Of a stretch of DNA of 64,000 nucleotides, positions 24,473 through 58,600 are shown piece after piece (position 1 is the first letter of the stretch; the number at the start of each line of letters is the position of its first letter). The stretch spans positions 12,400,001 through 12,464,000 of the forward strand of contig JBHGNT010000020.1 of NCBI GenBank assembly GCA_043228905.1, read 5' to 3'. The notes below the pieces were generated by a model. That model had not been told where the DNA came from, searched no databases, and worked only from the letters and a program-made list of their open reading frames with translations. This DNA comes from Azolla caroliniana (taxonomy: Eukaryota; Plantae; Polypodiophyta). The position numbers and the translations under genes are program-made.

Positions 24473-24504
24473 TGTGTTTCTTCTTGATTCAAAATGAACC
24501 TTTA

Positions 24505-28695: not shown

Positions 28696-31367
28696 TGTCG
28701 AAGAAGGAATTTATGAATTGGGTTGAAACCCCCCAGGGACAGAATACGTTGGCGATGCTTCAGGAGTTCGAAAGGCGGTTCACACGACTCTCGACGCTAG
28801 ACCGAACCGTGCTTGACACGATTAAGGTCTTGCTGTTTGTGAAGTCGGTTCACTTGCTCGATCGTGAAAAGGTGGGTCTCCTCTTGGAGACAGACGAGGG
28901 CCTCACGACTGACTGGGCAATGGTTAAAAGAGTTTATGGCCGTTTCAACAAACAACACGATTGGAATGACGTAGGGTTGTCGACAATCGGCCCGGGTGCG
29001 GGGAGGAAGCCGGAGGAACCGGTTCCGACAAGAACGAACGAAACAAGATGATGGCTCCAGTCGGGCACGACATCGGCCAACGTGGTAACAGGACCATCGG
29101 GGGGCGCAACTCTTGAGGACCTGACCAAGATGGTGCACGATCTCCAGATTGCGTAGGCTCGGAGGGACGGCGGGGGTCGCCGTTCGACTAGAGGTGTTGT
29201 GGTGTGACGCCATCGTGCACGTCCGGAGGGATTGTGCCGATTTCGCTGAGGCACTTAAAAGTGACGTAGTGTACCTTTGGAACGATCGGGTGCACGCCAA
29301 CGATACGCAGAGGGCCTTGAGGTAAATACCGGCCGGGGTGGGATGAAAAGTATAATGGAGGAAGCTGCAACCAAGAACGCCGAGGCCATTCACTACTCGG
29401 TGTCGGCGGGGATGGAGAGAAGGCCATCGGATCCAAAAGCAAAATTGAACTCTGGCCACTTGTGCTAGAGGGGCATGTCTAGTGTAAGGCTAAGGAAGGA
29501 AGAAGAGGACCGCGCGGAGAAGCGAGTCCAAGAGGGCACCGGATGGGACGATTCGGTAGAAGAGAAAACCGGCTTCGTGGAAGTTGCCTGCCAAAACTAC
29601 GAGGTTCTGGTGGAAGATAAGTGGGCCGGAAAGGCTGGAGAGGCCGGAGGGGCTGGTCCCTCGAACCGGTATGAGACCCAGAGTGGGCCGAAGAAGAATG
29701 ACGGAGGCCCAATTGGCTCACAGGAGAAGACGAAGTTGCCAGGCTTTCAGTTGAGCTCGGAGATAGAGAGGAAGACAGACCTGTCGAGGTTCTTGGAGGA
29801 ACAGATCCTCGACAGCTGGGTGGAGCTCACCCTGAGGGAGGTGCTAGGGATATCGAAGGAGTTCCATGACGACATTGTTGATCTCGTAAAAAGGAAGAGA
29901 CTGTCAACGGAGCCGGAGTCCGAGAAGTCGGTTGAAGTGAGGTTGGCCTTGATCGATGAGATGGCAGTAGAAGACGAATACGCCGAAAGCCATTACATGA
30001 GGCCGCACTCGGCAAGAGCTACCACGGAGACGCTGGTTCGGATCGGGGACGTGCAGGAGCCGGTGCTAGTGCTAATCGACCATGGATCAGAGATTAATTT
30101 AATGTCGATGGACTTCTACAAGAAGGGTAAATGGCCGATCAACACGAAGCATGGTTGGAAGATACGCGCTGCGACCCGCGCTACCGAAGAGCTTCATGGT
30201 GCGCGACCGAACATCCGAGTGAAAGTCAGGGATGTAGAGATCGACCAACAATTCTTCGTGTAGGAGACGTCTTCCCATCCGGTGATTTTCAGAGAACCTT
30301 ACATTACGGTAGCATGGATGGAAATGAAGGTGCTGGACAATGGTTCGGCCTATGCGAGGGTAAAGAGCCAAGACAGTAAGCACTCCGTCCAGTTTTTGAC
30401 AGTGCGGCCGAACCACAAAAGAAACCAGGATTCTCTTGGTGGCGAGAGTCGAGAGGATTTTTAACGAGGACTATCAAGGCATGGGGCCGCGATAGTCTGG
30501 ACAACTGGAAGAAACAACACACATGTACCATTGGTAGGAAATTTTTGCCCTCTGTTAATGGAGGTTGTACCCTAACTAGCATCGGTGGCTGGGAGAAGAA
30601 ACGAATCGAAGGATGCTTTAAGGCATGTGGTGCCTTAGGCTTTGACAACGAGATTAGAGGCGCCATGGAGGCGGTCTCATTCAATGACACCCTCAAGGAG
30701 ATCGAGAAGATAGTTGAGGAGGATCTTAGGGAAGGCGGATGTACGAAGTCATCGCGGACTTCGGGAAGATGATCGGGTTAGATCGGACCGACCGAATAGA
30801 CACCAAGTACAAGACTATGGATTGGAAGGTGAGGCCAATCGCAACTCCCTTGGTGGAGGACAGTTGGGAACAGATAAAAGGGGTCGCGACGGACCCAGGT
30901 TTAGGAGATGCGGCCAACATAGGACACCAATTCACTGACGAAACGCTACGGAAGCTCAAGACCGATGGGGGTGGCTTCCTATTGCCCGCGGAGAAGGACC
31001 GGTTTCGGAGGATGCTTGAAAGGCACACGAAAGCCTTTGTATTCTCGTCGTGTGAGATCGGGGCCGAGGTAGTAATCGACACAGATTGCCTGCCGATTCT
31101 CGGCATGGTTTCCGGATGCGTGACTCCGGACTTGGCGATTCTCAAGTGGGTTGCGTACATTAAGTCCCTGAATCCGTAGATAGGACACATCTCCGGAAAT
31201 GAGAACACCGTGGCTATTATGCTTTCGAGAAAGCGGTTTGACAACGAGGACGACATGGTGTCTGAAGACGAAGAAGTCGGCGAGAACTTCTTCGAGTCGG
31301 CCCAATTGAGGGCAAGCAAACGGGGCACTCCGGCCTTGAGCGAGTTTGACGAAATTGACTATGACGG
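28696..31367 (+). mobile_element. Gypsy copy A: degenerate non-chromoviral Ty3/gypsy fragment (gag, protease, linker; RT and most of RNase H deleted)
   Basis: LQEFERRFTRLSTLDR (gag), LIDHGSEINLM (aspartic protease), REDF*, KYKTMDWKVRP, then EVVIDTDCLPILGM. Collinear with copy C; multiple stops; no LTRs seen. Confidence 0.9.
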
Positions 31368-34300: not shown

Positions 34301-35704
34301 TTGACTCATCCTTCGTGTCCTTTGGACACCCCTTTATAGGAATCATCTAGGAATGGCATGGTGATGTCCGGGATGCAGTCCCTCAATACCTTGTTCATCG
34401 CATTCACCATGTGTGCCACCGAGTTTGTCCCTCCTTGCGGTAGGGTACACATCAGAACTAAGTCGAGAGGGGTTCGCATCGTTGTGATGTCCATGCTTTC
34501 GACGAAGGCTTCCCGACGAACTCGTCAATTGACGGACCGATTCCTGTATTGTGAATGGTCACCTTATTGACCAACTGCAAGTCTTGAATGAAGCGTAGCG
34601 TGCCATTCTTTTTTGGTACTGTAAACCACCGGTTGGAGTAAGTGGTAGTCGATGGTTCGAGGATGCCTAGCTCCACTTTCTGCTTAAGAAGCTTCATCAA
34701 CATCGGAATGTGAACTCTTGGTACCTGAATTGGCTTGAGACTCCACGGCACGTGCGACACCGTAACGATTACCATTGGTTCAACAACGGTCGGGTCGGCG
34801 CACTTGATCTCCCCCGACGAGAATGCGAAGGCTTTACCGTGCCTCTCGAGCATCCTCCTGAATCGGTCCTCTTCTGCCGGCATAGGAAGCCACCCCCACC
34901 TATCTTCAGCTCTCGCAACATCTTGTCGGTGAACCAGTGTCCTATGCTGGCCGGATCTCGCAAGCTTGGGTCGGTAGCGACCCTCTTTATTCGTTCCCAG
35001 CTGCCCTCCGGCAAGGGAGTCACGATTGGCTTCACCTTCCAGTCCACAGTCTTGTACTTGGTGTCCACGCGGGCGGTCTAATGCGCCCCGATTTTCCCTT
35101 TGAAGTCCACAATGACTTCATACATCTCGACTGAGTTAACCGGTATGAGCCGGTCTTCACTTAGACCTCCTTCGACTACCCTCTCGATTTCTCCAAGGGT
35201 ATCATCAAATGAGACCGCCTCCACAACGTTGCTGATCCCCTCTTCATGGCCCAAGGCTCCGCACACCTTTAAGTGCGCCTCGGCTCGTTTCCTTTCTCGG
35301 CCACTAATGCTGGTTATGGTACAACCTCCGTTATTGGAGAACAAAATTGTCCTTCCTATTGTATAGGTGTGGGGTTTGTTCCGGTCATCCAGACTACCCA
35401 ACCCCACGCCTTCATAGTCCTTTCTAAAAATCCTCTTGACCGTTATTGCCAAGGGTGTCCCGATTACGCTCATGATTCTGCCGCACTGTCAAAACTGGAT
35501 GGAGTGACGGTCGTCCTGACTCTTTACCCTTATGTAGGCCGAACCATTGTCTAGTACTTTGGTCTCCAGTCGAGCTGTCGTGATGTATGGATGGGAAAAT
35601 GTCTCTTGCACGAAAAAGTGTCGGTCTATCTCGACGTCCCCGATACTCGGTCTGACATTCAAACATGCCCCGAGCAACTCTTCCGTGGCACTAGTAGCCG
35701 TGCG
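31368..35704 (-). mobile_element. Gypsy copy B: partial 3' LTR (31368-31987), PPT and degenerate IN-RH-RT-PR; 5' end lost
   Basis: LTR edge ...CACAACA at 31987 next to the PPT (minus strand GGTGGGGGTGGA). Minus-strand TATA near 31710. IN (TTAYNPEAN, RKFAKQWFG), RT (LPQGGTNSV, MPFLDD) and protease C-terminus. Interrupted at 35705. Confidence 0.9.
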
Positions 35705-37412: not shown

Positions 37413-38199
37413 GCAAGCGACCCTATAAGAGCTCACTAAGATGGTATGGGACCTCCAGATTGCGCAGGCCTGGAGAGACAGTGGGGGACAATTGCATGAC
37501 CGAAGGCCTCGGTCGACCAACGATGTATGTGGTGTGACGCGGTTGGCCACACCCGAAGAGATTGCGCGGATTTTACCGAGGCACGCAGAAGCAATGTGGT
37601 GTACCTACGGAATGGGCAGGTTCATGCGAGTGAGACTTGGGAAGCCTTGGGTTGGAATACCGGTTGGGATGGAATGGAAGAAGCCACCGCGCGACATGCT
37701 GAGGCCATCCATTATGGCATTAGTCGGTATCCGGGTCGGAGGCGACAACGACCTGAAATCGAGACACTTCGGGTTCTGGACACTAGTGTTGGAAGGCCTT
37801 TTTGGAATACGGTTGAGGAAGGAAGAAGCGGACCGCACGGAGAAGCGGGTTTAGGAGGTTACGGGGTGGAACGATCCGGTCGAGGAGAAGACCGATTTCA
37901 TGGAAGCGGTGTCGTGAAGTTTCCCGCGCGTGTGTTACTTGGGCGGGACCACGGGGGTCTCGGACTAGGGAGTACTCAAGGGATAGAGAAGACCCGAGGT
38001 TTGCTTTATGACAATACTACTTCCCCACCCCTTCCCGAGCAAGGTCTCGTTCCCCTTTTGTTTTGTGAGGCCGGTGGCTCTTGTTGACCACGACTCGTCG
38101 ACCTTCCGAGATCACCGTACGAGCCAAGTGACCAAACGAGTACAAGCAAGATGAGCACGCAACATGAACGCACAAGGGGACGATAACACAAACACGAAT

Positions 38200-38720
38200 G
38201 TCCGTACGGCTTTATGAGGAGGAGAGGTGCATGGGCGCGCATGAACGCTCCCTTGTGACAAGACGTCGAACGTATGAGGAAGACACAAAACACACGCACA
38301 AAATGCTCGTATGCCTTTATGAGGAGGAGAGGTGCATGGGCAAGCCCGAACGGTCCCCTCGTCACAAGACGACCGAACGTACAAGGAAGACACAAACACA
38401 CGCACAAATGCTCGTACGCCTTTATGAGGAGGAGAGGTGCATGGGCAAGCCCGAACGGTCCCCTCGTCACAAGACGACCGAATGTACAAGGAAGACACAA
38501 ACACACGCACAAATGCTCGTACGCCTTTATGAGGAGGAGAGGTGCATAGGCAAGCCCGAACGGTCCCCTCGTCACAAGACGGTCGAACGTACAAGGAAGA
38601 CACAAACACACGCACAAAATGCTCGTATGCCTTTATGAGGAGGAGAGGTGCATGGGCAAGCCCGAACGGTCCCCTCGTCACAAGACGGCCGAATGTACAA
38701 GGAAGACACAAACACACGCA
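38200..38720. repeat. ~105-bp tandem repeat x5 in the copy C 3' LTR
   Basis: CTTTATGAGGAGGAGAGGTGCA at ~38210, 38315, 38420, 38525 and 38631. Confidence 0.95.
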
Positions 38721-39459
38721 CAATCAAAACATAAATATTAAATACCCTTAGAGACAAGGCAAAACCGAACACGGCGAAGACGAACCACGACCACCCGAAC
38801 GGCAAGCACACGGGCTCGCAACGACGAACGGGGCGGAGCAACGTTGAGTCAACGAAGCTTGGGCTCACGAGCCCGTGGCGATGGGGGGATGAAGGGGTAT
38901 GAGATGAAGAAAAGTGGTGAATAAGGAGATGAAGAGCTTCGAAAGAAAATTGGCGATAGTCTCATCCTCCCAAAACGTCCTCCCAAATGAGCCCCCCTCG
39001 ACCTCCTTTTATAGGAAAAAAAGAAGGGGGGGGGACGCCAAATTTGTCTTCAATGAAAAAGGAATAAAATTCCTTAAATCATGCTACACTGTAAGACTAG
39101 ACTCAAACCGTGCACCTCTAGCTAGTAGTCAATGTGACTATCCACTAACCCAATAACTCTTTCTTATATAATATGTAAGTCTATCTCTATAAATTTATAG
39201 CCTGTCTCCCCTCTACCCTTTATCTCACCTCTCTCTTACTTTTTGCACGAGCTTCTATACCTCCCTTTTACCCTTTCTTTTCCTTTTTATTTTGCATATG
39301 CACAATTAATCGCTTTTGTGTGCACACACATTGCACATGCACATTTTTGACCCCCTTTTCGCCGGTTTTTGCCACCCTCGAGCACGCCACATCACGACAT
39401 CCACCCCCACCAAACCGCACATCCTCCGGTATGTGCCAAGAATGGCGGGCTGAGGGTGG

Positions 39460-42400
39460 TTAGTAGTTCATTTCCTCCTCCTCATTGACCCCATGGCTTG
39501 TTGTTTGCTCGCCTTTGTTTTCATCAAGGTCATCGAGGTTTGGCTCCTTGTCGTGTCGCTTTTTGAAGATTTTGACCCGCTTCCCGGCTATTGGTACTGC
39601 CAGCTTAGTCCCATCGAGTTTAGCGAGGTGGTAGGTAGCATTATCGTTTGCACTCGTTACCATATACGGCCCGAACCATCGCTTTGCGAATTTCCGCATC
39701 GACCTATGTTGATTGTCGAGACTACTATCATATACAATCACCCAGTCTCCTTCTTCGATCTTCCGAGGGCGTAGTCGGTGTGTCTTGTCGAATCGGGCTT
39801 TGTTACTTAGCCTAGCCGCTTCTAACCTCTCCTTTGCTAACTCCAAGTCTTCGGGTCTTCTCTCAAGTTGCCTTATCCTTGTGGCTAGAAGCTCTTCTCG
39901 ACTCATCTCGTTTTCCCACGACATCGCTACCCATGAAGCGATCGTGTCTTCAATGGGCATCACCGGCTTTTGTCCGTACATGAGTTCAGCTGACATGAAA
40001 CCTGTAACTAAGCTATGAGTTGTTTTGTCGGCCCACAAGGCATAAGGTAGTAACCGAGGCCAATTCCCGACTCGCCCATCACAAGCTCGTACAATGGCTT
40101 TTACGATAGGCCCGTGTCCGTGTTCTATCTTTCCATTAGCCTCTGGGTTATAAGCGGTCGTGAGAGAGAGCTTCACTCCAAGTCGGTCAAAGAGCTCTGT
40201 AGCTTCGTGAGCGTTCAACTCTCCTCTATCGGCCACTATCTTTCCCACACATCCGTACCGGCAAATGACATCCTCGAGTAAGAATTTACACACCCCCGCC
40301 GTCGTTTTGTTTGCTAAGGTCCGCCCTTCTACTTGGTTTGTTAGGTCTTCTCTTGTTAGCACCAAATATTTCATTTGGCCCACTCTCATCGGCATCGAAA
40401 CCAAATCCACCATCCATTTGAAGTGTATGGTGAGTGGGTAGGTCGGGTGCAACTCGTCCCTATGGCGTATGTTGGAGTGTATCTGACAGCTTTCACACGT
40501 CCCCACGAAATGGGCGACATCCTTGTACATTCCTGGCCACCAATACTTCTCCTTTAACTTCTCGAATGTTGCCCACGTTCCTCTATGGAATTCAGACACC
40601 AATGTTGTCTGGTCCTCTTCCTTTATGACCACTCGTTGTGGCGTCCCCGTCCTTCTCTTCGGGTGCCTCCAAAGGAATCCCCCTCGTAGGAAGTACTTGT
40701 ACGCTTTCTTTCAGACTCTTTGTGCTTCCTGCTTCGACCATGAACTATCCATTGTCATTGAGCTTAAGAACTTGCCAATGTGTAGCCACTCCCCTTCGTA
40801 TTCACTTTCGTTGAAGGCGTGGAGTACTCGCACATCTTGATCATCTATAGATGCTTGGGCTGTCTTAAAGAAGTCAAGAGCGACATCCTCATCTTCAGAC
40901 ACCATGTCGCTTTCGCCTTCGAACCTTGCCCTCGATAGCATATCTGCCATGACATTGTTCTTCCCTGAAATGTGGTGAATCTCCGGGTTCATTGATTTGA
41001 TGTAAGCGATCCATCTTAGCATAGCTAGGTCAGGTGTTGCACACCCCGAAACCATCCCTAGGATTGGAAGGCAATCCGTCTCTATTACCACCTCTGACCC
41101 GATTAGGTAATCTTTATCCGCCTTCACTGCGGACACAATACCCCAAAGCTCACGTTTTACTTGGGCGTATCCTCGTTGTCGCTCGCTTAAGACCTTGGCT
41201 CCGAACCGGATGGCATAGCGTGTACCATGCTCTCCTTCTTGGTTGATGACCCATCCAATCCCTGTTGGACTCGTATCTACCGTCACGTAGATGGGCACCC
41301 CTTCCTTGTATACGGCTTTTCGTAAAGCTGGTGCCGCTACCAACATTCCTTTGAGCCTCTTCATTGCCTCTGTGTGCTCTTCCTCCCACTTGAACTTCCG
41401 CCCCTTCTGAAGTAGCCCATACAAGGGCTCGGCTAGGTGAGCATAGTGCGGGATCCAGATGTGGTAGAATGCACAAGCACCAAGAAATCGCCTCACCTCT
41501 GTTTGCGATTTACATTCTTCCCTCATGTTTGTGATGGCGTCCACCTTTGCCGGGGACGGCTTCCGTCCGTACGCCCCGCACAAGTGTCCCACCACAAGGA
41601 TCTCTGGTTGGCCGAATGCCGATTTCTCACCCGAGAAGGTCAAGCGTGCATCTCCGAGTCTTTGTAGAACCTTCTCGCAATCGGAGATGTGATATGCCAC
41701 AAAACGTCTGCACCCATACTCGTCCAAGGTTTCATCTTTCTCCGCTTCATAGCACCCTCTTATGGGGATGTCATCGAGGAATGGCATGGTGATGTCGGGG
41801 ATGCAATCTCTCAGTACCTTGTTCATTGCATTTACCATGTGGGCTACAGAGTTAGTGCCTCCTTGTGGCAAGGTACACATTCGCACTAGGCCGATAGGAG
41901 TTCGCATCGTCGTGATGTCCCTGCTCTCCACAGCTAGTTGGAATTGATCATACCCCAAGTATAGATCACCGATCGAATAAATAGACCTTCCAGCGAAGGC
42001 CTCGACGAATTCGTCAACACTCGGTCCGACCCCGGCATTTCGAATTGTCACTTGATTAACAAGTTGTAGGTCCTGGATGAAGCGTAATGTGCCGTTCTTC
42101 TTTGGCACAGTGAACCACCGATTCGAGTATGGGGAGCTTGATGGCTCGAGGATACCCATCTCGATCTTTTCCTTGAGTAGCTCAATCAACTTTGGGATGT
42201 GAGCTCTCGGAACGGGGATTGGCTTGATGTTCCACGGTACATGCGGCACCGTAAAGATCACCATTGGCTCCACGATCTTAGGGTTTACACACCCTATCTC
42301 ACCCGACGAGAAGGCGAAAGCCCTTCCGTGGCTTTCGATCATCCTTCTAAATCTTTCCTCCTCCCTAGGCAATAGGAAGCCACCCCCACCAATCCGGAGC

Positions 42401-42945
42401 TTCTGTCGCGTCTCGTCGGTGAACCGATGCCCTATGCCTCGTGGGTCCCGCAAGCTAGGATCAGCCGCTACCCCCTTTATCCGATCCCAACTATCGTTAG
42501 GCAATGGGGCAGCCACATGCTTCACCTTCTTGTCCACGGTCTTGTACTTTATTTGCACCTTGACCGTCCTCGCTTCCTCAATCGACCGCCCAAGCTCTTC
42601 GATGGCGGTGTACATGTCAACTGAGTTGACTGGAATTACCTTGTCTTCATTGAGGCCCGAAACGACTACCCTCTCCATCTCTCTGAGAGTGTCGTCGAAC
42701 GAGACTGCCTCCATGGCGCCGCTTATGGTGTCATCTTCCCCCAATAAATTACATTGTTTGAGATACCTTTCGTATCTCTTGGCCCTAGACTTATCTCTAT
42801 CACTTAAACTAGTAATTTTACAAGCGCCATTTTCGGAGAACCAAAATTGTTTCCTATTACATTTAATAGTTTTACAAGGGTTTAGGGTCTTAGTTTGCCT
42901 CGGGCTATTGCGGCCCCACTCTCTAATAGCCCGAATCAAAAATCC
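39460..42945 (-). pseudogene. Copy C pol ORF (linker-RT-RNase H-integrase) in the -1 frame relative to gag-PR
   Basis: ORFs 40711-42939 and 39460-40632 are in one frame, separated by a single TGA. RT GYDQF/LPQGGTNS/FLDD, RH VDTS...ETD, IN WMVDLV...VADRG...PEANG. A 7-codon deletion relative to copies B and D falls in the HHCC motif. Confidence 0.92.
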
Positions 42946-45087
42946 TCTCGGCTATCCCCTTTGAGGGAGGCTTGATTGCGCTCATGGTTGGGCCTCACTG
43001 TAAGGAACTGGACCAAATGCTTCCCATCTTGGCTCTTGACCCTCACATATGCCGACCCGTTGTCTAGCACCTTCGTCTCCATACGAGCCGCCGTGATGTA
43101 TGGTTCACCCAAGATGACCGGGTGCGAGGACATCTCTTGAACAAAGAAATTTTGATCTATTTCTATGTCCCCCACCTTCACACGTACATTCGGGCAAGCC
43201 CCGTATAACTCCTCGGTTGCTCGGGTCGCCGCTCTAATCTTCCACCCGTGCTTCATGTTGATCGGCCACTTTCCCTTTTTATAAAAGTCCATGGACATAA
43301 GGTTGATCTTAGAGCCATGGTCGATCAATGCTACCACCGGCTCTTTTACATCTCCAACCCGTACCGGTGTCTCCGTTGTCGCTCTCGCCCAATGCGGCCT
43401 CGTGTAGTGACTATCCGCACAGTCTTCGTCTTCCTCGGGGACCTCAGTTGACAATGCATTTACAATCGCGGGTTTTGCCACTTCTTGCTCCGTTGAGAGC
43501 CGCTTCCTCTTCATTAGGTCGATGATGACCTCGTGAAATTCTTTCTTGGCAATTCCGAGGACCTCTCGCAAGGTAAACTCTACGCGACTATCGAGGATCC
43601 TCTCCTCCACTACCTTCTTCAAGTCCGTTGCTTGTTCGATCTCCGAGCAAAGCTTGAAGTTGGGGGGGTTCCCCTTCTCTTTCCATCTTTCGTCGCGTGC
43701 TTGAGACTGGTTCGGCTCTTCCCTTCTTCGTGCACCTCGAGCGTCGTACTTCCTTGATGGACCGGCTCCCTCGTCATTTCCTACCTTCTTCTCTTCTACC
43801 ATTACTTCGTAGTTTTGGCAAGCGGCTTCCACTAAGCCTGTCTTTTCTTCCACCGGATCCTTCCACCTGGTTGCTTCTTGGACCCTTCTTTCCGCCTCGT
43901 CTGCTTCTTCTCTTTTGAACTTCCCCTTAGAGAGGCTTCCAAGGATTGATGGCCAAAAGTCAAACTCTTTCTCCTCTTGCCTCCTCCCCTCTTTCCCCAC
44001 TCGGATCCCAGCCGATGCCGAGTAGTGGACGGCTTCAACATTTCGTGCTTCGGCCTCCTCCATTAGCCTTCTCATGCCCCCTCGGCCTTGATTCAATCCC
44101 AACGGGCGCCTTGTCTCCGTCGAATAGACCCTATTGTTCCAAAGATAGACAATATCCTTTCTTAGGGCCTCTTGAAAGTCTCCACACTCCCTTCGTAGGT
44201 GGTCGGGGTTGTCACACCACATACATCTTTGCGCGAACGGGGGACGTCGATCTTGAGGGCCGCCACTCTCTCTCCTAGCTTGCGCTATTTGGAGATCTCG
44301 CACCATCTTTGTGAGCTCGTCTATTGCCGACCCTCCCGACGGTGCTTCAACCACGTTTCTCTCGGGGATGAACCTTGCATTTGCTTGCTCTCTTTCTTGA
44401 GGTATTCTACCAGCCCTGGGTTCGTGTGTCTCACTAATGGAGCCTGTGGATGTTTGGCCGCTCAACGGAGACCCGTCATTCCATTCCCTTCTCTTATCGA
44501 AGCGGCTACAAACCCGTTTTACCATAGCCCAATCCGTTGTGAGCCCATCATCAGTTTCGAGGAGGGACCCCACCTTCTCTCAGTCTCGTGCATCAACAAT
44601 CTTTATGAATAGTAGGACCTTGCTTGTGTCAAGCACCATCCTATCGAGCGTCGAGAGTCGCGCGAAGCGCTTCTCAAATTCTTGTAAAAGTACCATAGTA
44701 TTTCTCCCCTTGCCGGGAAGCTCAACCCACTCCATTAGATCCCTTTTCGAAATTCTGAGTGAGTCATCAAGGCCGTACTTCTCGAGGAGTCTTTCTTCGA
44801 ACTCCACCCAATTGCAACAGTTCGCTTGGATCTCGAGTACCTCCGCGTGGATACTCGGCGTTACCACTCTAGCGAATCCGGTTAGCCGCCTATCTTCGGG
44901 GACGTTTCGCATAAGCATTTCGGCCTTATAGGCATCCAAGTAGCTCGTGATATCTCTTCCATTGAACCGCCCCGTTGTGCTAACCATCGTCTCTATGGCC
45001 CGGTCTAGACCGGTGATGCCTTCTCGGGCATTTACCAAGCCGTCCACCGCCGCCGCCATCGCTTCAGCGAGTTCTCCTCCTCGCATC
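42936..45087 (-). pseudogene. Copy C gag-protease ORF with one premature TGA at 44580
   Basis: ORFs 44580-45113 and 42936-44573 are in the same frame. CCHC-like CMWCDNPDHLRREC, protease LIDHGSKINLM, ends GDSREDF*. Confidence 0.9.
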
Positions 45088-45108
45088 TTGGTTCTCCCTT
45101 GCCGCCCT

Positions 45109-45126
45109 TTCACGTCGGGATCACCA
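45109..45126 (-). other. Primer-binding site complementary to the tRNA-Trp 3' end
   Basis: Minus strand TGGTGATCCCGACGTGAA, 5 nt from the 5' LTR. Plant tRNA-Trp(CCA) ends ...TTCACGTCGGGTTCACCA as recalled (17/18 match). Confidence 0.75.
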
Positions 45127-45359
45127 ATTTATGTCGCGAAGTTTCGCGCGCGTGTGTTACTTGGGCGGGACAATACTACTTCCCCACCCCTTCCCGAGCA
45201 AGGTCTCGTTCCCCTTTTGTTTTGTGAGGCCGGTGGCTCTTGTTGACCACGACTCGTCGACCTTCCGAGATCACCGTACGAGCTAAGTGACCAAACGAGT
45301 ACAAGCAAGATGAGCACGCAACATGAACGCACAAGGGGACGATAACATAAACACGAATG

Positions 45360-45975
45360 TCCGTACGGCTTTATGAGGAGGAGAAGTGCATGGGCGCGCA
45401 TGAACGCTCCCTTGTGACAAGACGTCGAACGTACGAGGAAGACACAAAACACACGCACAAAATGCTCGTATGCCTTTATGAGGAGGAGAGGTGCATGGGC
45501 AAGCCCGAACGGTCCCCTCGTCACAAGACGGTCGAACGTACAAGGAAGACACAAACACACGCACAAATGCTCGTACGCCTTTATGAGGAGGAGAGGTGCA
45601 TGGGCAAGCCCGAACAGTCCCCTCGTCACAAGACGGTCGAACGTACAAGGAAGACACAAACACACGCACAAATGCTCGTACGCCTTTATGAGGAGGAGAG
45701 GTGCATGGGCAAGCCCGAACGGTCCCCTCGTCACAAGACGGTCGAACGTACAAGGAAGACACAAACACACGCACAAAATGCTCGTACGCCTTTATGAGGA
45801 GGAGAGGTGCATGGGCAAGCCCGAACGGTCCCCTCGTCACAAGACGGTCGAACGTACAAGGAAGACACAAACACACGCACAAAATGCTCGTACGCCTTTA
45901 TGAGGAGGAGAGGTGCATGGGCAAGCCCGAACGGTCCCCTCGTCACAAGACGGCCGAACGTACAAGAAAGACACG
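45360..45975. repeat. ~105-bp tandem repeat x6 in the copy C 5' LTR
   Basis: Same unit as at 38200, starting at ~45369, 45474, 45579, 45684, 45790 and 45895. Confidence 0.95.
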
Positions 45976-48900
45976 AATAAAGAAAGAAGGAGAGAAAGAA
46001 ACACGAACAATATTGACCAAAGAGTTAAATACGTGTTTGATTCTAATGCAAGAGGACCCTTTATAAAATAGGGTTTTTTTTTTACAATGGCAACTTATAG
46101 TTAACCACAAGCTCAATCAAAACATAAATATTAAATACCCTTAGAGACAAGGCAAAACCGAACACGGCGAAGACGAACCATGACCACCCGAACGGCAAGC
46201 ACACGGGCTCGCAACGACGAACGGGGCGGAGCAACGTCGAGCCAACGAAGCTTGGGCTCATGAGCACGTGGCGGTGGGGGGATGAAGGGGTATGAGATGA
46301 AGAAAAGTGGTGAATAAGGAGATGAAGAGCTTCGAAGGAAAATTGGCGATAGTCTCATCCTCCCAAAACGTCCTCCCAAATGAGCCCCCCTCGACCTCCT
46401 TTTATAGGAAAAAAAGAAGGGGGGGGTCGCCAAATTTGTCTTCAATGAAAAAGGAATAAAATTCCTTAAATCATGCTACACTGTAAGACTAGACTCAAAC
46501 CGTGCACCTCTAGCTAGTAGTCAATGTGACTATCCACAAACCCAATAACTCTTTCTTATATAATATGTAAGTCTATCTCTATAAATTTATAGCCTGTCTC
46601 CCCTCTACCCTTTATCTCACCTCTCTCTTACTTTTTGCACGAGCTTCTATACCTCCCGTTTACCCTTTCTTTTCCTTTTTATTTTGCATATGCACAATTA
46701 ATCGCTTTTGTGTGCACACACATTGCACATGCACATTTTTGACCCGCTTTTTCCCACCCTCGAGCACACCACATCACGACAACGGCCTGCCAAAACTACA
46801 AGGTTCTAGTGGAAGATAAGCGAGTGGGAAAGGGTGGAGGAGCCGAACCCTTTGGCCGGTACGAGACGCGGAGCGTGCCGAAGAGAAGTCACGCCGGCGG
46901 TCCCGGCTCACAAGAAAGATCGAAACCAGTGGGTTACTGGCTAGACTCTGAAATAGAGAAAGCGGTGAACTTATGGAAAGTCCTTGAAGAATAGATCCTC
47001 GACAACAGGGTGGAGCTGTCTCTGAGGGAAGTGTTGGGGATCGCCAAGAAGGAGTTCCACGACTCCATCGTAGACTTGGTGAAGCGAAAAAGGCTCACGA
47101 CTGAGCCAAAACCTCAAAACCTCGTGGAAGTGCGAACAACAGACTTAGATGACGCAGCCGGCGAAGATGAATTGGCGGATAGCCACTACTCGAAGCTACA
47201 TTGGGCGAGAGCGACCCCTGGAGACCCCGTCCGGATTGGGAACGTTCAAGAGCCAATGGTGGCGTTGATAGACCATGGATCCGAAATCAACATGATGTCC
47301 ATGGATTTCTACAAAAAGGGGAAGTGGACGATCAACACCAAGCATGGGTGGAAAATACAAGCAGCTACGCACGCTACGGAGGAGCTACAGGGGGCGTGCC
47401 CGAATGTACACATGAAGATTAGCGATGTCGAGATCGATCAACACTTTTTTGTGCAGGAGACTTCCTCGCACCCGGTGATCCTCGGCGAACCATACATTAC
47501 AGCGGCTTGTATGGAGACCAAAGTGTTGGACAACAGTTCGGCATACGCGCGGGTGAAGAGCCAAGACGGACGTCACTCCATCCAATTTTTTACTGTGCGA
47601 CCGAACCATGAGCATAACCGTGAATCTCTCAGCAACAACGACTGAGAGGATTTTTAGAGAGGGCTATCAAGGCGTGGGGCCACAATAGTCTGAACACCCC
47701 GAAGAAACCCCACACGTGTACCATAGATAGGGGATGTTGGTTCTCTGACAACGGAGGTTGTACTACAACTGGCGTCAGAAGCCGGGAAAAGAAGAAGGTT
47801 GAAGAGCGTTTAAGGGCGTGTGGTGCCCTTAGCTCCAAAGCAAGATCAGTGGTGCCATGGAGGCGATCTCTTTCGACGACACCCTTGGAGAGATCAGGAG
47901 GGTAGCCGATGAAGGCCTGAGCAGAGACCGGGTAATTCCGGTCAATTTCGTGGAAGTGTATGAAGTCATTGCAGACTTCAGTGAGAAGGTCAGGTCGGAG
48001 AAGATGTCCCTAGTTGACACCAAATACAAGACTGTCGACCAAAAGGTGAGGCTTGTCGTGGCTCCCTTGTCGAAGGGCAGCGAAGAGCGGAGGAAATGGT
48101 TCGTGCTAGACCCCAGTTTGCGGAATCCGGTCGGCACTGGTTCACCGACGAGACACTACGGGAGCTTCCTACTACCCGCGGAAGAGAACCGATTTCAGAG
48201 GATGCTTGAGAGACACGGGAAGGCCTTCGCATTCTCACCGGAGGAGATCGGGTGCGTCGACCCGATAGTCGTAGAGCCCATGGTTATCTTCACGGTACCG
48301 CACGTGTCGTGGAATCTCAAACCAAATCCGGTACATAGAGCTCACATCCCAAAGTTGATGGAGTTGTTGAATCAGAAGGTGGAGATGGGCATCCTTGAGC
48401 CGTCGAGTGCCCAAATTCAAATCGATGATTTATGGTGCCGAAAAAGAATGGCACATCACGCTTCATTCAAGACTTGCAACCAGTCAATAAAGTGACCATT
48501 CAGAATGCAAGGATCGGGCCAACCATCGATGAGTTCGCGGAGGCCTTCGCTAGAAGGTCGATCTACTCGGTTGGTGATCTATACTCGGGATATGATCAAT
48601 TCCAACTAGCCATTGAGAGTAGGGATATCACGACAATGCGGACCCCTCTCGACTTAGTGCGGATGTGTATCTTGCCGCAAGGAGGAACCAACTCGGTGGC
48701 GCACCTGGTAAACGCGATGAACAAAGTGTTGAGGGACTGCATCCCGGACACCATCATGCCATTTTTGGACGACATTCCAATCAAGGGATGTCTGGTAGAA
48801 GAGAAGAATGAATCGGTCGGACCAGACGGATGCCAAAATTTCGTGACAAACCATATCAATGACTGCGAGAAGGTGCTATAGAGGCTCGAGGGTGCGTGGC

Positions 48901-50177: not shown

Positions 50178-51125
50178 ACGTAAGGTTCCCCATCCGATTT
50201 GGAGCGAAAGTATTAAGCGAGCGGCAACGAGGATACGCCCAGGTTAAACACGAACTTTGGGGTATCATTTCGGCAGTCAAGGCCGACAAAGACTATTTGA
50301 TCCAGACAGAGGTAGTAATCGAGACAGACTGCCTACCTATCTTAGGTATGATTTCCGGATGCGCGACTTCGGACCTGGCTATGTTCAGGTGGATCGCATA
50401 CATCAAGTCCATAAACCCGGAGATCTGACACATCTCCGGTAAAGACAATGCCATGGTCGATATGCTTTCAAGAGCGCAGTTTGACAACGAGGACGGCATG
50501 GTGTCAGAGGACGAAGAAGTCGGCGTGGACTTCTTCGAGTCGGCTCGTGTAGTAGCAGGGGAGGGGAGCACTCCGAGACTGAATGAGTTTAACAAAAACG
50601 AGTACGACAGGCAGTGGCTCCAGATAGGCAAATTCTTAAAAACATTTGCAACAGATGCGGCATGGACGATGTTAGAGACATAAATTAATGTAAGCATGAG
50701 ATAAGGATAGAAAATAGATAAATAGATAGAAAGGAGAGAGAGAAAGAAGGGTGCCGATCTACCCGACCACCCCCGAGCGAAGGGATCGAGACGGACTCAA
50801 GCCTCGATCGGCGTCCTATACCACCGTCGTGGCGTCGAGTCATACATGGTGCTGACACGCTCGCTACAAGAGTTGACCCACCACAAGACAGAGTCTCGAC
50901 GTAGTCAACAAGATGATGAAATGAGGGTAGCTAGGCCTCTTATTTATAGCGATACCCAAGGCCCCAGGCAAGTTCCCACTTGGCCTAATGGGTTGTCTCA
51001 ATCCCGAGGATTAAAAGTAATCTTCTCCTTCTTTACACTCTCATTTAACCCTCACACTTATCCACGTGTATAAAATACTACGGTAAATTCTTACCACAGG
51101 ATATTATATGGTCATGCCCGTAACA

Positions 51126-54100
51126 TACCATCAGATTGAGGATGATCCGTGGAGCTCATGCTCAACGTAGTTTCTAACTTCATAAAGACTTGCGTCCAGA
51201 AGTCACTAGTAAACTTTGGATCTCGATCACTCACGATATCCATCGGTAACCCATAAAAACGAAATAACTCATCAATGAATTGGTAAGCCAATTCAGGAGC
51301 TGTTACCGTGGTTTTAGTAGCAATAAATCTAGCCATTTTAGTTAGTCTATCAACCACAACCAAGATGGCATCATGGCCTTTTTGGGTGCGAGGAAGGCTA
51401 ACAATAAAATCCATGGATATACTTTCCCACTTATTATTGGGAATGTCCAAGGGATGTAAAAGTCATGCGGCTTTAAGTCGCTCGGCTTTGTTAACCTGAC
51501 ATTGGTGACATTTAGTCACATAGCTATGTATGTTAGGACGCATCTTAGGCCAATAAAATTGAGTGGAGATGAGAACGAGTGTAAGATGTATTCCAGGGTG
51601 CCTTGTTGAGGGTGCATCATGCCATTAAAAAAGAATCCTCTTTTTGACCTCGGGTAAATCTAGAACACAAACCTTCCCATTACGGTAGAGCAGACCGTTA
51701 GCAATGTGGAAGTATTCCTTCGAGGATGTGGCGGTGTCTGTTCCAGACTCAACTCTTGCCCAGTATTTTGCAAAATAATTGTCATCAAGATACTTTCCTC
51801 GAAGGTGATCATAAAGATATGATGATATTTCAGTGAAGCTAAGCATGTTAACTTCACGGATGCGACTTAGTGCATCAACGATAATGTTCATGGAACCTTT
51901 ACGATATCGTATGGAAAAATCAAAGTCCTAGATGAGATCAGCCCATCGTGCCTTACGACTTTTAGGTCTTGTTGATCACAAAACTATTTCAAGGACTCAT
52001 GGTCCGTAGTTACCACAAAGCGATTTCCATAAAGATAATGACGCCATGTTTTGAGCACATGTATAATTGCAAATAATTCCTTTTGTTGAACGGTATACCG
52101 ACATTGAGCAGAATCAAGTTTCTTACTCTCGAATGCTATTGGTTTACCATCTTGATATAAGACAGCACCTATAGCATAATCGCTTGTATCGGTTTCAACC
52201 TCAAAAGGTTTTGAAGGATCAGGTAAAAGAAGTGAAGGAGCCTTGCATACCAGGTCCTTGAGTTCCTTAAAGGCGAGGTCTAGTGTAGCATTCCAGACAA
52301 TAGGTTTTGTAGACTTACGCGTTTGACCTTTTAAAAGATCAGTAAACAGCGTCATCAATTGGGAGTAATTACGAAGGGATTTTCGCAAAAACCCGACAAA
52401 ACCAAGGAATGATCAAACTTCTCGAATATTCCGAAGAGTGGGCGAAAGCTTGATTTTCTCGATGCGAGAAGGATCAATTTCAACTCCTCGTTCGGTTATG
52501 AGATGTCCAAGATAAGTAATTTATTTCTTGAAGAACTCACATTTTGAGATCTTCGCGTAAAACTGTTTGTCACGCAATGTTTGTAAAACAAAACAGACAT
52601 GTTTAGCATGTTCTTGTAATGTATGGCTATAAACTAAAATATCATCCAAGAAAATAACGACAAATTTTCCAATTTGTTCTCGGAAAATGTCATTCATTTC
52701 TTGTTAAAATGTAGTCGGGGCATTGGTCAAACCAAAAGGCATAACCAAAAACTCATAATGGCCATAATGTGTACAAAATGTTGTTTTAGGAACATCGTCC
52801 TCACTTATACGAATTTGATGGTAGCTAGTATGGAGATCAAGTTTTGTAAAATACCGGGCTCCTTGGAGACGGTCAATTAGATCGTTAGCCCGGGGCAATC
52901 CATACGAATTCTTGATCATCACTTTATTCAAGCGTCGGTAATTAATACACATACGCCATGTGCCCTCTTTCTTTTTAACCTAGAGAACTGGTGCACCCCA
53001 TGGAGATTTACTATAACATATATAACCCATTCGTAAATAGTCCTTTAGTTGCTTAGATACCTCATCCTCTTCGGATCAACTTAAGCGATAAGGAGGTATA
53101 CTTATTGGTGCAACGCCAGGTACAATATCTATACGATGGTCTATATTACGTTTAGGAGGTAACCCATCTGGTAGTTCACTTGGAAAAACATCACGAAAAT
53201 CATTTAAGATTTCATCAAGTTGTTGTTGTTCAAAATATGTAATTGAACCGAGACATTATCGATGTTGTAAACGTGAATGTCCGGATCAAGTACACAATAA
53301 AATAGAGTAGAACAAGACAACTCGGATATTGATGGACACGAGGAAACAATCAAGAGGGATTGTTTTTTTACACATTGAATAAAATGAGTACAGTCGTTCA
53401 GTACAAATGTAATTAAATGATGAACCCAATCAATAGATAAAGAAGAGCTTTTATTATAGAACCAAGGATAACCCAGTATTACATCAATGGTACAAAGATT
53501 CATTACATGGAAGTCTACTTCCTCTATATAAGTGTCAATAGAGATTCGTAATGAATGAATCGCCCTGTTGATGTATTGTACTCTTCCATTAGCCAAGTGC
53601 ACCGTGTAGGTGTGATCACTTACGGTGGGTTGGATTCCCCATATCTGAACCAAACGATCATTCACAAAGTTGTGTGAGCTTCCCAAATTAAACAAAAATT
53701 GTACGGGAGATCCATTGATATACCCGTTTGCACATAGTAAATCATTGGGACCCAATACATAGTGAGAGAAAGAACATTGACAATTACTTAAATGATCTGT
53801 ATATACCCGAAGGACATTGGGAATCTGACCTTTATGTTTTGCAGCTTTAACTTTGTTGTCGTGCTCTTTCCGTTGGAGCTTTCGACATTGCTCTTTTGTA
53901 TGACCCTTCTTTTTGCAGAATACGCAAAAAGGATGTTGTCGCTTACAATCGCGATCCATGAATTTGTTGGGTGTCTTGCGTTTCCTAGCGAATTGCGACT
54001 GCTTAGTCCCGGGTGCTTCGTTGGGTTTGTTGTGATCCTTCTTCAAAGTGCGTTGATAGCGAAGATCTATTTCAACGGCCTCTTCGAAGGATTTTGGATC

Positions 54101-54770
54101 CTTATCGTGCACTATCCAATGATAGTCCGAATTGGGGATGCCATTGACAAAACAAGCTATTAACCAATTGTCCCCTTGTAGTCCCGATTTTTGGATTTAG
54201 GTTCTAGCATGGTGGACATAGTCTTCTAGCGAGAAAAACTTCCTGCTAGAGAGGTTCATTAAAGCTTGTGCTGCCTCAATTTGAGAGGGAGGTTGCAGAA
54301 ATTGCACCTTGAAAACTGTGACAAAATCTGTCCAAGTATCGGGCAATTTCCCCAAAGTACGGAGCCCACGCCACTAGGTGGCGGCCTTACCCCCTAGTTC
54401 TCGGCTGACATATGCAATCTTCGTACTATTTGGCATGGGATAGAGCTCAAAATGAGACTCCCATCGGCCCAGGCACGTGCAGATTGCTTCTTCGGTTCTT
54501 TCCTTTTTTTCTCCCGTAAATGGCTTAATGACAAACGATGGTTCACCCTGTCGCTCATCAGGTCTATTAGTCTCACGTTGTAGACTAATGAATGACACGT
54601 GCCTTGAGAGCACTTTGAGATTGCCGAAGTTTGGTCATTTGTTGAGCGGTGAAACTAAGGTATTGGGTTATTTGCAAAAAATATATCTCAATGGACATTT
54701 GTCCAGGAGGATTCCCTTGAGTTCCTTCCACTTGAGCGGATGACATCGGGTCGTTATTTTGAGCCATTAA
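51126..54770 (-). pseudogene. gag-pol of the chromovirus-type element (stops and frameshifts; integrase truncated)
   Basis: CCHC CVFCKKKGHTKEQC; degenerate protease (FNLGSSHNF); [29 protein letters not shown]; RH ETDTSDYAIG; IN WESISMDFI...IVSDRDPKFTS...HPQSDG. Confidence 0.92.
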
Positions 54771-55559: not shown

Positions 55560-55612
<53 letters not shown>

Positions 55613-58600
55613 AGATAGAGACAGACAGACAGACAGAGTATACGCAAGGTTAAGTATATTAGCAAAGGAGAAAGACTCAACACTATACAAGGTGGGAGGA
55701 GGGTGCTTTATGTAGTCACCCTCTCTCTTCATTAACTACAAGACTCATGGAGCATGGGGAATGTGAAAGCTCATAAGTTATGTGTCATAGAATATGATTT
55801 TATGACTCATACTAAACGCTAGAATACAAAGTGGTGACATAATGGTGACTTTTGACCGTTGGAGTGTCTCTTCACTCTCAAGGTGAGTTCACACACTAGA
55901 CCAAGTTGAGCTTGATTCTCAGCACGCCCCCTCAAGCTCAAGTCGGGTCGGTTTTAGACGGTATCCGAAATCCGCTTCATTTCACGTTCGGGAGTCCACG
56001 TCGAGTCACGTCTACTCGCTTTATGCGGAGTTGCGGAATCCATGCTCCAGCTTGCGTTGTGCGTAGTTATGAAGTTTGTGCTTCGGCTTGCGTCTTTCTT
56101 CGCAGCTTTGCGCGGTAGATCGGCTCTTCCCTGCTACGTTGCGTGGTTGTAGAATCCACGCGTTATTGCGTAGTGCGCGGTTGCGGAATCTACGCTTTAT
56201 TGTGTAGTGTCTTCAGTACTCCCTCTCAAGCTTGGCAGGTCAGGGATCGTTAATCCGAGATCGGTCATGAATTGCCATAGCTTGTCAGCTCCTAAGGCTT
56301 TAGTGAAGATGTCGGCCGTTTGAAGATTGGTGCTAATGTGTTGTAGGTCGACATCGCCAGCCAGAACGCGCTCTTGGATGAAGTCATAGTGCACTTCGAT
56401 GTGCTTTGTCCGGCGTGGAACACCGAGTTCCGAGCCAGATAGATATTGCTCATGTTGTCGCAGTAAAGGGAAATCGGATCCTTGATGGGTACGCCCAGAT
56501 CCTTCAAAATCCTCTTGAGCCATATGGCTTCACACGCAGCTACGACTGCACCCCTGTATTCCGCCTCCGTACTCGAAAGAGCGACGGTAGGCTGCTTCTT
56601 GCTACTCCAGGATATTGCTCCGCTGCCGAGGGAGAAAACAAATCCGGAGGTTGATCTTCTATCAACTTTGTAGTCGGCCCAATCGGCGTTTGTGTACCCC
56701 TCGAGTTGTATTGGCATCGTGGTCTTGTAGAGGATGTTGCAATCCATTGTGCCGCTCAAGTAGCGTAGAACTTGATTAGCGCAATCCAAGTGAGTATCAC
56801 GCGGAGTTTGCATGAATTGGCTAAGGAGACCAACCGGATAACTGAGATCGGGTCGTTTGATCGTGAGGTAGATGAGACTCCCGATGAGTTGCCGATACTG
56901 AGTCGGCTCACACGCTTTGGTGCCGGAGTTCGCATCTAGTTTGAGATTGCGATCGAGCGGGGTTGTCGCGGATTTGCACTTAGCCATCCCGAAGTTGTAT
57001 AACAAGTTGAGGATGTAGTGCCGTTGAGAGATCATGATTCCGGCCAGAGTCCGAATTACCTCGATGCCGAGGAAGTAGTGGAGCTCCTTCATGTCCGTCA
57101 TCTCGAACTTGTCAGAAAGGAGGGATTTGACTTTATTGATTTCGACGAGATGCTCACCTCCAATGACTAGGTCATCCACATATAAAATGATGACGATCGG
57201 ACTTGTGGAATCGCTTCGTATGTAGAGGGAGTTGTCCGATTTTGACATACGGAAGCCGATTTGATGAAGATATTGCGTTATCTTCGAATGCCAAGCACGC
57301 GGTGCTTGCTTGAGGCCGTAGAGTGGCTTCTCGAGTCAGCAAACCGCTTTCGGATGGGTGCTCGAGTTGAAGTCGGGTGGTTGGATCATGTACACCTCCT
57401 CTTCTAATTCACCTTGTAGAAAGGCGTTCTTGACGTCCATTTGATGGAGGTGCCACCCTTTCGTCGCGGCAAGCGCAATTACGGTCCGCACCGTCGTCAT
57501 CTTTGCCATCGGGGCAAAGGTCTCTTCGTAGTCAACGCCATGCGTCTGAGCGTATCCTTTCGCTACGAGTCGAGCTTTGTAGCGGTTTACGGAGCCATCG
57601 ACATTATACTTCACCTTGTAGATCCATCTGCATCCGATCAACTTTTTGTGTGGTGAGGTGGAAACGAGATCCCACATCTCGTTCTTCCGTAGTTCCTGCA
57701 TCTCCTCGTTCATTGCTTCGATCCATCGCGGGTCCTTCGCGGCTTCCGAAAAGGTTTCCGACTCCCGTACTATCGCTACCTTCATCATAAAGGCGTAATG
57801 GTACGCCATATAATCGTTGTAGCCGAATCGGCTTACGGGGTTTTTTCCACGGGTGGATCGGCGGAGCTTTTCATTTGTAGAGATGAGGTCTTTCTTAGCT
57901 CCGATTGGTACCTCGAAACCGCCGAACTCACTGTCAAGTGAGTGAGTCGACTCATCGTCATTGAAGCGATCGTCTTCGTATTCCGACATTTTCGCCTTGC
58001 CTTTGTCCATCTTCGGGCTAGGCGGTGATGTGCTTTGATCGCTCAAAGGCTCTTGTGGTCCACTCAATCGGGTCGTGATCAGACTTTCTTCGAATATGCG
58101 CATAAGGTGATCTTCATCCTCGATCTCTTGTTCGGCGAATTCCGGGTCGAGCGAAGTCGGAGTTGGAGTTGTCTCTGGTGCGTACCAAGATGCGGACTCG
58201 TCAAAAACAACGTCTCGACTTACTCGAGATTTTCGAGTTGAGGGGTTGTAGCACTTGTACCCCTTTTGCTCCAATGAGTATCCTACGAGGATACATTTCT
58301 CCGACATCGGGTCAAGCTTTTGACGCTTCTCGTCGGGGATGTGCACGTACGCTATCGCGCCGAATATCCGGATGTGCGATAAGTCCGGCTTCTTTCCAAA
58401 GTATTTTTCGTGCGGAGTGACCTCATGCACGCCGGATGTTGTGCACCGGTTCATTAGGTAGACGGCCGTATTTGCAACTTCGGCCCAATATGACTTGGGC
58501 ATATGGCTCTCGTTCATCATGGCCCGCGCTACTTCGAGGATGTGCCCATTTTTGTGCTCGGCTACTCCGTTTTGTTGCCGAGTGTGTCGGCAAGTGAATT

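Follow-up and report, generated by a model that had tools for sequence, protein, structure and literature searches.

How is Pol made in a gypsy retrotransposon whose reverse transcriptase (RT) lies in a different reading frame from Gag and the protease (PR)? The question is raised by a 64,000-nucleotide stretch of the Azolla caroliniana genome (contig JBHGNT010000020.1, positions 12,400,001 to 12,464,000), here called the window, which contains four gypsy copies, A to D. Copy C, on the minus strand, is an element of almost full length, and copies A, B, and D are older fragments. Their features are given below in window coordinates.

42939..42945, minus strand: slippery heptamer G_GAU_UUU of copy C, the final two codons of the Gag-PR ORF
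42933..42938, minus strand: Gag-PR stop codon TGA of copy C (42936-42938) and 6-nt spacer to the conserved start of stem 1
42902..42932, minus strand: stem 1 of copy C and its loop; 10 bp predicted, the core arms being 42925-42932 and 42902-42909
42914..42919, minus strand: G-run in the loop of copy C, 5' strand of the predicted pseudoknot stem 2
42884..42887, minus strand: 3' strand of the predicted stem 2 of copy C, CCCT only (6-8 bp in most families)
42936..45128, minus strand: ORF1 of copy C, Gag (DUF4100, CCHC-like motif) and aspartic protease; premature stop at 44580-44582
43002..43376, minus strand: retroviral-type aspartic protease domain inside ORF1 of copy C, with a D-H-G-S motif near 43320
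39460..42951, minus strand: ORF2 of copy C in the -1 frame, broken by a premature stop at 40711-40713, with a linker of about 100 codons, RT, RNase H, and integrase
45110..45126, minus strand: primer-binding site of copy C, complementary to the 3' end of genomic tRNA-Trp with one mismatch
45132..46781, minus strand: 5' LTR of copy C, with CCGT (NCGN) directly before it
38010..39399, minus strand: 3' LTR of copy C, sharing 96-98% identity with the 5' LTR; final ~40 bases absent
30455..30498, plus strand: heptamer, TAA, and stem 1 of copy A; -1 frame open for at least 70 codons, stem-2 partner decayed
35369..35433, minus strand: heptamer, TAG, stem 1, and CCCCAC of copy B, with a 1-nt deletion in the loop
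47648..47713, plus strand: heptamer, TAG, stem 1, and CCCCAC of copy D, with a premature TGA two codons upstream

Four gypsy copies and their lineage

The initial annotation of the window had described a heptamer followed by a stop codon in all four copies, and the positions that it gave were correct when rechecked in the sequence, as were its stems, the TGGGG in the loop, and the CCCCAC in copies D (47708-47713) and B (35369-35374). It had also stated that every copy ends in GAG GAT TTT and a stop; the heptamer and stop are indeed present in all four, but the gag frame of copy D is closed two codons upstream of the site by an in-frame TGA (47643-47645) and therefore stops short of GAG GAT TTT. 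The placement of RT in a frame that is -1 with respect to gag-protease in copy C was confirmed by the overlap of the ORFs at 42936-44579 and 40711-42951, which are offset by -1 from each other, and tblastn gave the same -1 offset in copies A and D. One base is missing inside the loop of copy B, and its -1 frame therefore closes after 23 codons, while copy A has lost the C-run downstream of the loop. The window contains the sequence GAGGATTTTTRR 4 times, compared with an expected 0.07, an excess that is no test on its own because the four occurrences are homologous copies.

Pfam identified DUF4100 in ORF1 of copy C and RT, RNase H, and integrase in ORF2. Since the protease score was below the cut-off, we turned to the fold of ORF1. 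The structure model was confident at residues 116-240, with pLDDT mostly 80-97 over the protease stretch, and a Foldseek search with it returned the proteases of DDI1 (RVP), XMRV, EIAV, and HIV (best E 3e-7), and a search of PDB by sequence gave nothing useful. ORF1 thus carries the protease fold and the junction lies after the protease, as had been annotated. The named protein relatives were from the moss, liverwort, and fern genera Physcomitrium, Riccia, and Adiantum, and no relative was found in the viral contigs searched.

By target site, primer site, DUF4100 Gag, and length, the four copies appear to belong to a Phygy-like gypsy lineage, our trees holding only our own loci. Phygy is a non-chromovirus Ty3/gypsy lineage of Physcomitrella with a 4-bp NCGN target, a tRNA-Trp primer site, and a length of 7.7-10.0 kb (PMC6317226). 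An NCGN motif flanked the 5' end in 9 of 9 LTR pairs of the sister family described below and in the 5 C-family copies in which the LTR start was reached (CCGT at copy C), and 6 elements had an exact 4-bp target-site duplication. The primer site matches genomic tRNA-Trp, as in Phygy, and the elements measure 7.87-8.15 kb (9 copies) or 9.27 kb (2 copies), with the coding region filling the interior, so that the lineage is like Phygy in its NCGN target, its tRNA-Trp site, and its length of 7.9-9.3 kb. A search with general Pfam profiles showed no chromodomain and no extra archaeal RNase H in the pol of copy C. The ORF layout of Phygy is given as not determined in this plant classification of 2019, whereas an overlap of Gag-PR with pol in the -1 frame is read here; none of the plant gypsy lineages in the same table has overlapping GAG-PROT and RT ORFs (PMC6317226, Additional file 5).

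It was also noted that both LTRs of copy C contain a 105-bp tandem array of ~5-6 units (window 38196-38829 and 45355-45988), and that four tRNA-Trp-like genes, some of them degenerate, lie within 1.4 kb of the genome (L281:1451-2878). Three other features were seen on the minus strand of the window. An intronless 456-codon ORF with HAT/TPR repeats (Syf1/CRNKL1/PRP39-like) at 23231-24601 is a host gene or a large exon. A Copia element at 56292-60638, with repeats at 55567 and 60896, has gag, integrase, and RT pieces interrupted by stops. A distant gypsy element at 51121-54196, between repeats at 50670 and 62219, has a protease ORF at 53204-54196 and an RT that is 23-28% identical to that of copy C.

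Reading frames and the heptamer across copies and families

A search of the DNA of the same genome with the copy C junction gave 3430 first-look candidates, a figure that is not a copy number, and 40 of these were scored. GGATTTT was present in 27 of the 30 close relatives of copy C that were fetched, followed by TGA in 19, TTA in 7, and GGA in 1. A stop directly beside the heptamer is thus no constant feature, and its loss in 8 of the 27 relatives that keep GGATTTT speaks against the -1 reading. Of the same 30 sequences, 23 have their first RT match in the -1 frame, 4 have it in frame 0, and 2 in +1; 1 has no match. The RT frame failed to reach the site in 5 of the 6 off-frame relatives. In one of the 30 (L020), an indel has brought RT into frame 0 right after the stop, with 181 RT codons open only. 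Combining 90 loci from the A, B, and D junctions with 30 from C (2 unanchored, identical stretches counted once) gave 106 distinct anchored genomic copies, in which GGATTTT was found in 72, several rows being mis-anchored.

We also observed a sub-branch of the C family (L017, L021-L023, L025, L028, L029) in which TTA replaces the stop, so that Gag-PR extends for 18 more codons through the pseudoknot, with pol still in the -1 frame.

To compare families, we used 47 of 80 metagenome loci, which passed a filter on ORF length only (gag open for at least 280 codons; pol open for at least 400 codons from RT, or to the contig end); 76 of the 80 contigs carry record numbers close to one another and might represent repeats collapsed in assembly, and the sampling of hosts is narrow. 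The pol frame was -1 in 45 of these near-intact loci and -2/+1 in 2, and a continuous PR-RT frame, for which the initial annotation had asked that young copies be checked, was found in 0 of the 47. Furthermore, the pol frame was open upstream past the gag stop in 47 of 47 loci, by 10-121 nt in the representatives of the 25 families obtained by clustering at 88% identity. Both ORFs were whole in single genomic copies from three -1 families, with 730+1166, 771+1147-1149, and 710+1152 codons, respectively.

The heptamer was GGAUUUU in 20 of the 25 families, GGAUUUC in 1, GGGUUUU in 2, and GGUUUUU in 2, and all 23 families with pol in the -1 frame had an X_XXY_YYZ heptamer in the zero frame, G_GA being accepted. 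The gag stop was located 15 nt from the heptamer in 4 families. A heptamer in the gag register requires that the residue before the encoded dipeptide has a codon ending in G. Among 120 homologous Gag-PR proteins, 77 ended in DF, GF, or NF, 26 ended five residues after such a pair, 2 had VF and one further residue, and 15 ended otherwise; the residue before the D/G/N/V-F dipeptide had a codon able to end in G in 105 of 105 proteins against a background of 72%, the rows being related rather than independent. Seven of the proteins (P0071, P0073, P0079, P0108, P0115, P0118, P0095), known as protein sequences only, end in GF or NF or have VF near the end, and suggest that there are more variants of the heptamer.

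The pol linker after the site is under coding constraint. No stop was found in the first 100 codons of this frame in 25 of 25 families, compared with a mean of 8.3 stops in the other frames, and dN was lower than dS in the pol linker in 9 of 9 computable pairs. For the pseudoknot codons (the first 22 codons of pol), dS fell below the value for the linker in 8 of 9 such pairs.

A predicted pseudoknot and two offsets of pol

In 23 of 23 families with pol in the -1 frame, one and the same base, 6 nt past the heptamer, opens stem 1. The base of the predicted stem lies 4-7 nt after the heptamer, in line with the stimulatory structure 5-9 nt downstream that is expected of -1 signals. In the alignment of the 25 families, stem 1 was 97% paired, with two-sided changes at 6 of 8 pairs, and stem 2 was 77% paired in a fixed register, with two-sided changes at 5 of 6 pairs; this register was picked on these same sequences. 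Examples of stem-2 pairs are GUGGGG/CCCCAC, UGAGGG/CCCUCA, GCGAGA/UCUCGC, GGGACA/UGUCCC, and GCAGGGA/UCCUUGC. The covariation score was 0.40 compared with 0.24 in shuffled data (0 of 500 as high), a control that ignores the relatedness of the families, and with 0.10-0.18 for slid partners. The energy of pairing between the loop and its own downstream window was -11.2 kcal/mol, compared with -9.0 for the windows of other families (permutation p 1e-5) and -3.7 for other windows of the same element. Pairing of -7 kcal/mol or better was obtained in 24 of 25 families and in 14% of 375 controls.

We thus consider an H-type pseudoknot downstream of the heptamer to be a well-supported prediction across families, in which both stems covary, as the first reading of the four copies had suggested. 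The prediction is weak in copy C itself, where stem 2 comprises only 4-5 bp, with CCCT as the 3' strand, and the family of copy C (-7.0 kcal/mol for its representative) has the weakest or second-weakest stem 2 among families. Nor is the stem of copy C exceptional alone, with z -1.8 (z +0.5 for copy D). A search of Rfam with L001 and L201 gave no match at E up to 1.

With pol in the -1 frame, the heptamer kept, and both stems covarying, the proposal that programmed -1 ribosomal frameshifting links Gag-PR to Pol in this gypsy lineage, with the predicted pseudoknot as stimulator, is very probably correct, and -1 frameshifting is supported as the only reading that fits the family-wide data. Gag and protease share one frame, RT-RNase H-integrase are encoded in the -1 frame, and the two frames overlap at G_GAU_UUU with the two covarying stems after it. 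A ribosome with Asp- and Phe-tRNA on GAU UUU would pause at the pseudoknot about 6 nt downstream, and a minority would re-pair on GGA UUU and continue into pol. The junction peptide expected from such tandem slippage has one Phe followed by a Leu of the -1 frame, and not the two Phe of the peptide REDF/FLIRAI that had been put forward. The remaining ribosomes would stop 0-15 nt later and release Gag-PR, so that the protease would be made 1:1 with Gag, and RT and integrase would be a minor product. We infer from this an abundant Gag-PR and a rarer Gag-PR-Pol.

The 2 families with the other offset (L167 and L172) form a sister clade, with Pol proteins that are 80% identical. The Pol and Gag-PR trees, both with a midpoint root only, placed this clade among the -1 families with a support of 100/100 and 100/99, respectively. 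The site in these families is CAG GUU UUU, followed by one codon and then UAG, with 5 nt instead of 6 nt to the same stem 1, a stem 2 of 7-8 bp, and pol in the -2/+1 frame. An RG_GUU_UUU site with a second ORF in the -2 frame was found in L167, in L172, and in the genomic copies.

The L167 family is abundant in the genome of the four copies, with 1890 first-look candidates. Among 41 distinct sequences, the -2/+1 frame of pol was open through the junction in 29 and interrupted in 5, and the rest were frame 0 interrupted (5) or scored as -1 (2, one of them mis-registered and one interrupted). In all 12 long fetches of this family, the -1 frame runs into an immediate stop and frame 0 ends after a single codon; the -1 frame of L172 is open for a few codons before it closes. 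The whole pol of 1152-1153 codons was in the -2/+1 frame in five copies, three of which also had the whole gag frame of 738 codons, and LTR identity was 92.8-100% in the 9 copies with an LTR pair. With whole ORFs and LTRs up to 100% identical, the -2/+1 offset characterizes a family that has multiplied recently and does not result from decay.

Natural cases of -2 frameshifting are few, and the best-studied one is driven by a protein. We think it probable from the sequences that the sister clade reaches pol by a programmed -2 shift. With the site changed to AG_GUU_UUU and the spacer shortened by one base, pol has come to lie in the -2/+1 frame, and ribosomes would most likely enter it by slipping back two bases along the longer U-run. 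A move by -2 on GAU UUU would put the Phe-tRNA on AUU, whereas on GUU UUU it would land on UUU, so that the A-to-U change would open the -2 route. Spacer length alone was rejected as the determinant of direction, since the predicted stem base is 4-5 nt from the heptamer in 10 of 23 families with pol in -1, a count that also speaks against the -2 reading, and the A-to-U change is therefore needed as well. On balance, the comparison favours the view that the same pseudoknot would drive -1 shifting in most families and an essential -2 shift in the recently active sister clade, the switch consisting of the A-to-U change in the slip site and the loss of one spacer base.

The alternative for this clade is a +1 shift to pol, by forward movement of the P-site Phe-tRNA or at a shifty stop, which we regard as possible but rather doubtful. 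The +1 frame is mostly accessed by +1 shifting (PMC5009743), a -2 slip would leave the Val-tRNA without P-site re-pairing on AGG, and L172 and a few genomic copies read UUU_UAC, which allows perfect +1 re-pairing, with UAG one codon later. The abundant young family, however, reads UUU_GAC, on which +1 re-pairing would be poor. Moreover, the site fits the arterivirus -2 motif RG_GUU_UUU (PMC5644247), and the homologous pseudoknot has been kept one base closer to it, which favours -2 (PMC3458567).

The -2 shift of arteriviruses is among the nearest known likenesses to the -2 slip that we favour. The -2/-1 site of arterivirus nsp2TF is RG_GUU_UUU (PMC4937337, PMC5644247); the sister clade shares AG_GUU_UUU, and the genomic family has, like PRRSV, an immediate stop in the -1 frame. 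The arterivirus shift is driven by nsp1beta/PCBP bound ~10 nt downstream, without RNA structure (PMC4937337, PMC5644247), whereas a covarying predicted pseudoknot follows 5 nt downstream in the sister clade, where the shift would be essential for RT. A protein stimulator acting on the CCCANCUCC motif without RNA structure is thus not what we found at this site, which has the covarying pseudoknot instead, and the sister clade may work like the arterivirus -2 shift but is no member of that type. On a U6A slip site with a stem-loop or pseudoknot as the stimulator, shortening the spacer by 1-2 nt favours -2 (PMC3458567). The switching between -1 and -2 in that system was engineered, whereas here the change would be a natural one, in a retrotransposon with a conserved stimulator. 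Related viruses are also known to differ, the shift being -1 or -2 in Trichomonas vaginalis virus 1 versus 2-4 (PMC5009743).

Three further observations were made on related loci. A site G_GUU_UUC with a 6-nt spacer and pol in -1 was seen in one short contig (L188:1255-1310), a possible natural control for the -2 clade, and a search for this family in the genome of the four copies did not find it. Three elements, L367:1298-3572 (reverse strand), L368:748-3022, and the similar L192, have a whole Gag-PR ORF of 758 codons without a slip site or a long pol ORF in the fetched stretch; they are likely to be non-autonomous derivatives with Gag-PR only, the PR end of which resembles the AG_GUU_UUU family. 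One copy has an open frame of 510 codons downstream of pol (L365:6561-8091).

Competing explanations and known recoding systems

Three other explanations of the offset, which we consider equally and highly improbable, dispense with ribosomal slippage. The first is splicing as in Ogre elements, in which a junction intron would be removed from part of the transcripts, joining Gag-PR to Pol in frame. Ogre splices between GAG-PROT and RT (PMC6317226), the TTTTTAG of copies B and D looks like a 3' splice site, and PR is joined to RT in one chain in 13 longer database proteins or gene models. No conserved splice sites were found, however, among the 25 families. At most 4 of the 25 families share any one GT in the 59 nt before the end of the heptamer, one at -60 being present in 13; an AG follows the U-run in 10 families, and the YAG that is most frequent, in 18, belongs to the 3' arm of stem 1. 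Ogre has a spacer of ~274 bp, whereas here the ORFs overlap, the pol frame is stop-free, and there is no non-coding spacer with stops. The joins in the 13 fused proteins, which are known from the proteins only, skip the site and differ between models, and they look like predicted introns. Finally, splicing leaves the conserved in-frame heptamer unexplained.

Contigs from four runs were aligned with copy C. A joint at 42888-43877 in one run has AA..AG ends and a 3-base repeat and is out of frame; it was rejected as no GT-AG intron. One contig spans 42754-43723 of copy C ungapped and is given no weight as evidence, its run being only guessed to be RNA.

The second explanation is that Pol is made separately from an AUG ~76 codons into ORF2, either through re-initiation or on a subgenomic RNA. 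The Kozak context of this AUG is good in copies A, C, and D (gccATGG), and a Met at alignment column 117 is common to 20 of the 25 families. The first Met of ORF2 was nevertheless found anywhere from codon 5 to codon 110 among families, without a conserved AUG, and the frame upstream of the Met is stop-free in 25 of 25 families and under purifying selection, with conserved residues in columns 1-114. A constrained, stop-free frame before the Met means that translation from the slip site is needed.

The third, polymerase slippage, in which RNA polymerase II or RT would add one or two U on the T-run, could draw on the T4-T6 run at the site and on reports of structure-stimulated RT slippage in vitro (PMC5737552, PMC5737442), but the run has only 4 T in several families, and slippage would require neither the conserved G-G(A/G) start of the heptamer nor its gag-frame register. 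Read-through of the stop was rejected, pol not being in frame 0.

Programmed -1 frameshifting, the reading that we prefer, has close counterparts among plant RNA viruses. In wheat-germ extract, GGAUUUU and GGGUUUU have both been tested as -1 sites (PMC4737148), a G_GA start is a known exception in -1 heptamers (PMC5009743), and PEMV RNA2 uses G_GAU_UUU and BYDV G_GGU_UUU (PMC4737148, PMC5009743). The umbravirus, dianthovirus, and luteovirus signals are alike in their heptamers, in the stop at or just after the site, in the nearby downstream structure, and in the use of plant ribosomes (PMC4737148, PMC5009743). They differ in having a bulged hairpin that is paired with a distant 3' element, whereas a compact, local H-type pseudoknot is predicted here, in a retrotransposon. 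The pro-pol shift of MMTV and HTLV is located at the same position as the signal described here (PMC5009743, PMC12789967). These viruses require an earlier gag-pro shift, whereas Gag and PR are in one ORF here. The gag-pol shift of alpharetroviruses may be a parallel, if alpharetroviral Gag itself carries the protease. A review, against this parallel, places the alpharetroviral protease in pol (PMC5009743).

For plant LTR elements, the same review, of 2016, gives only cases with gag and pol in a +1 frame in its summary of a 2003 survey (PMC5009743). No published account of this signal was found in a search that covered mostly titles and the starts of abstracts, few subscription papers, and the 2003 survey through the review only, and the passages of PMC7466625 covered make no mention of ORF, frame, or splicing.

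Taken together, the recoding signal appears to be real and well conserved, the translation steps being those we infer from sequence, and its interest is raised by the -2 candidate. If confirmed, it would explain how an abundant lineage of repeats in seed-free plants is expressed, with a shift after the protease that would make the protease as abundant as Gag, and it would account for the introns that gene predictors invent at the junction. The families supply 25 natural variants of a compact pseudoknot, predicted to act on plant ribosomes, and the sister clade lets the direction of the shift, -1 versus -2, be tested with natural sequences. If true, the sister clade would represent a natural -2 shift driven by RNA structure in a nuclear retrotransposon, and would allow the mRNA-tension model of shift direction to be tested on a natural case.
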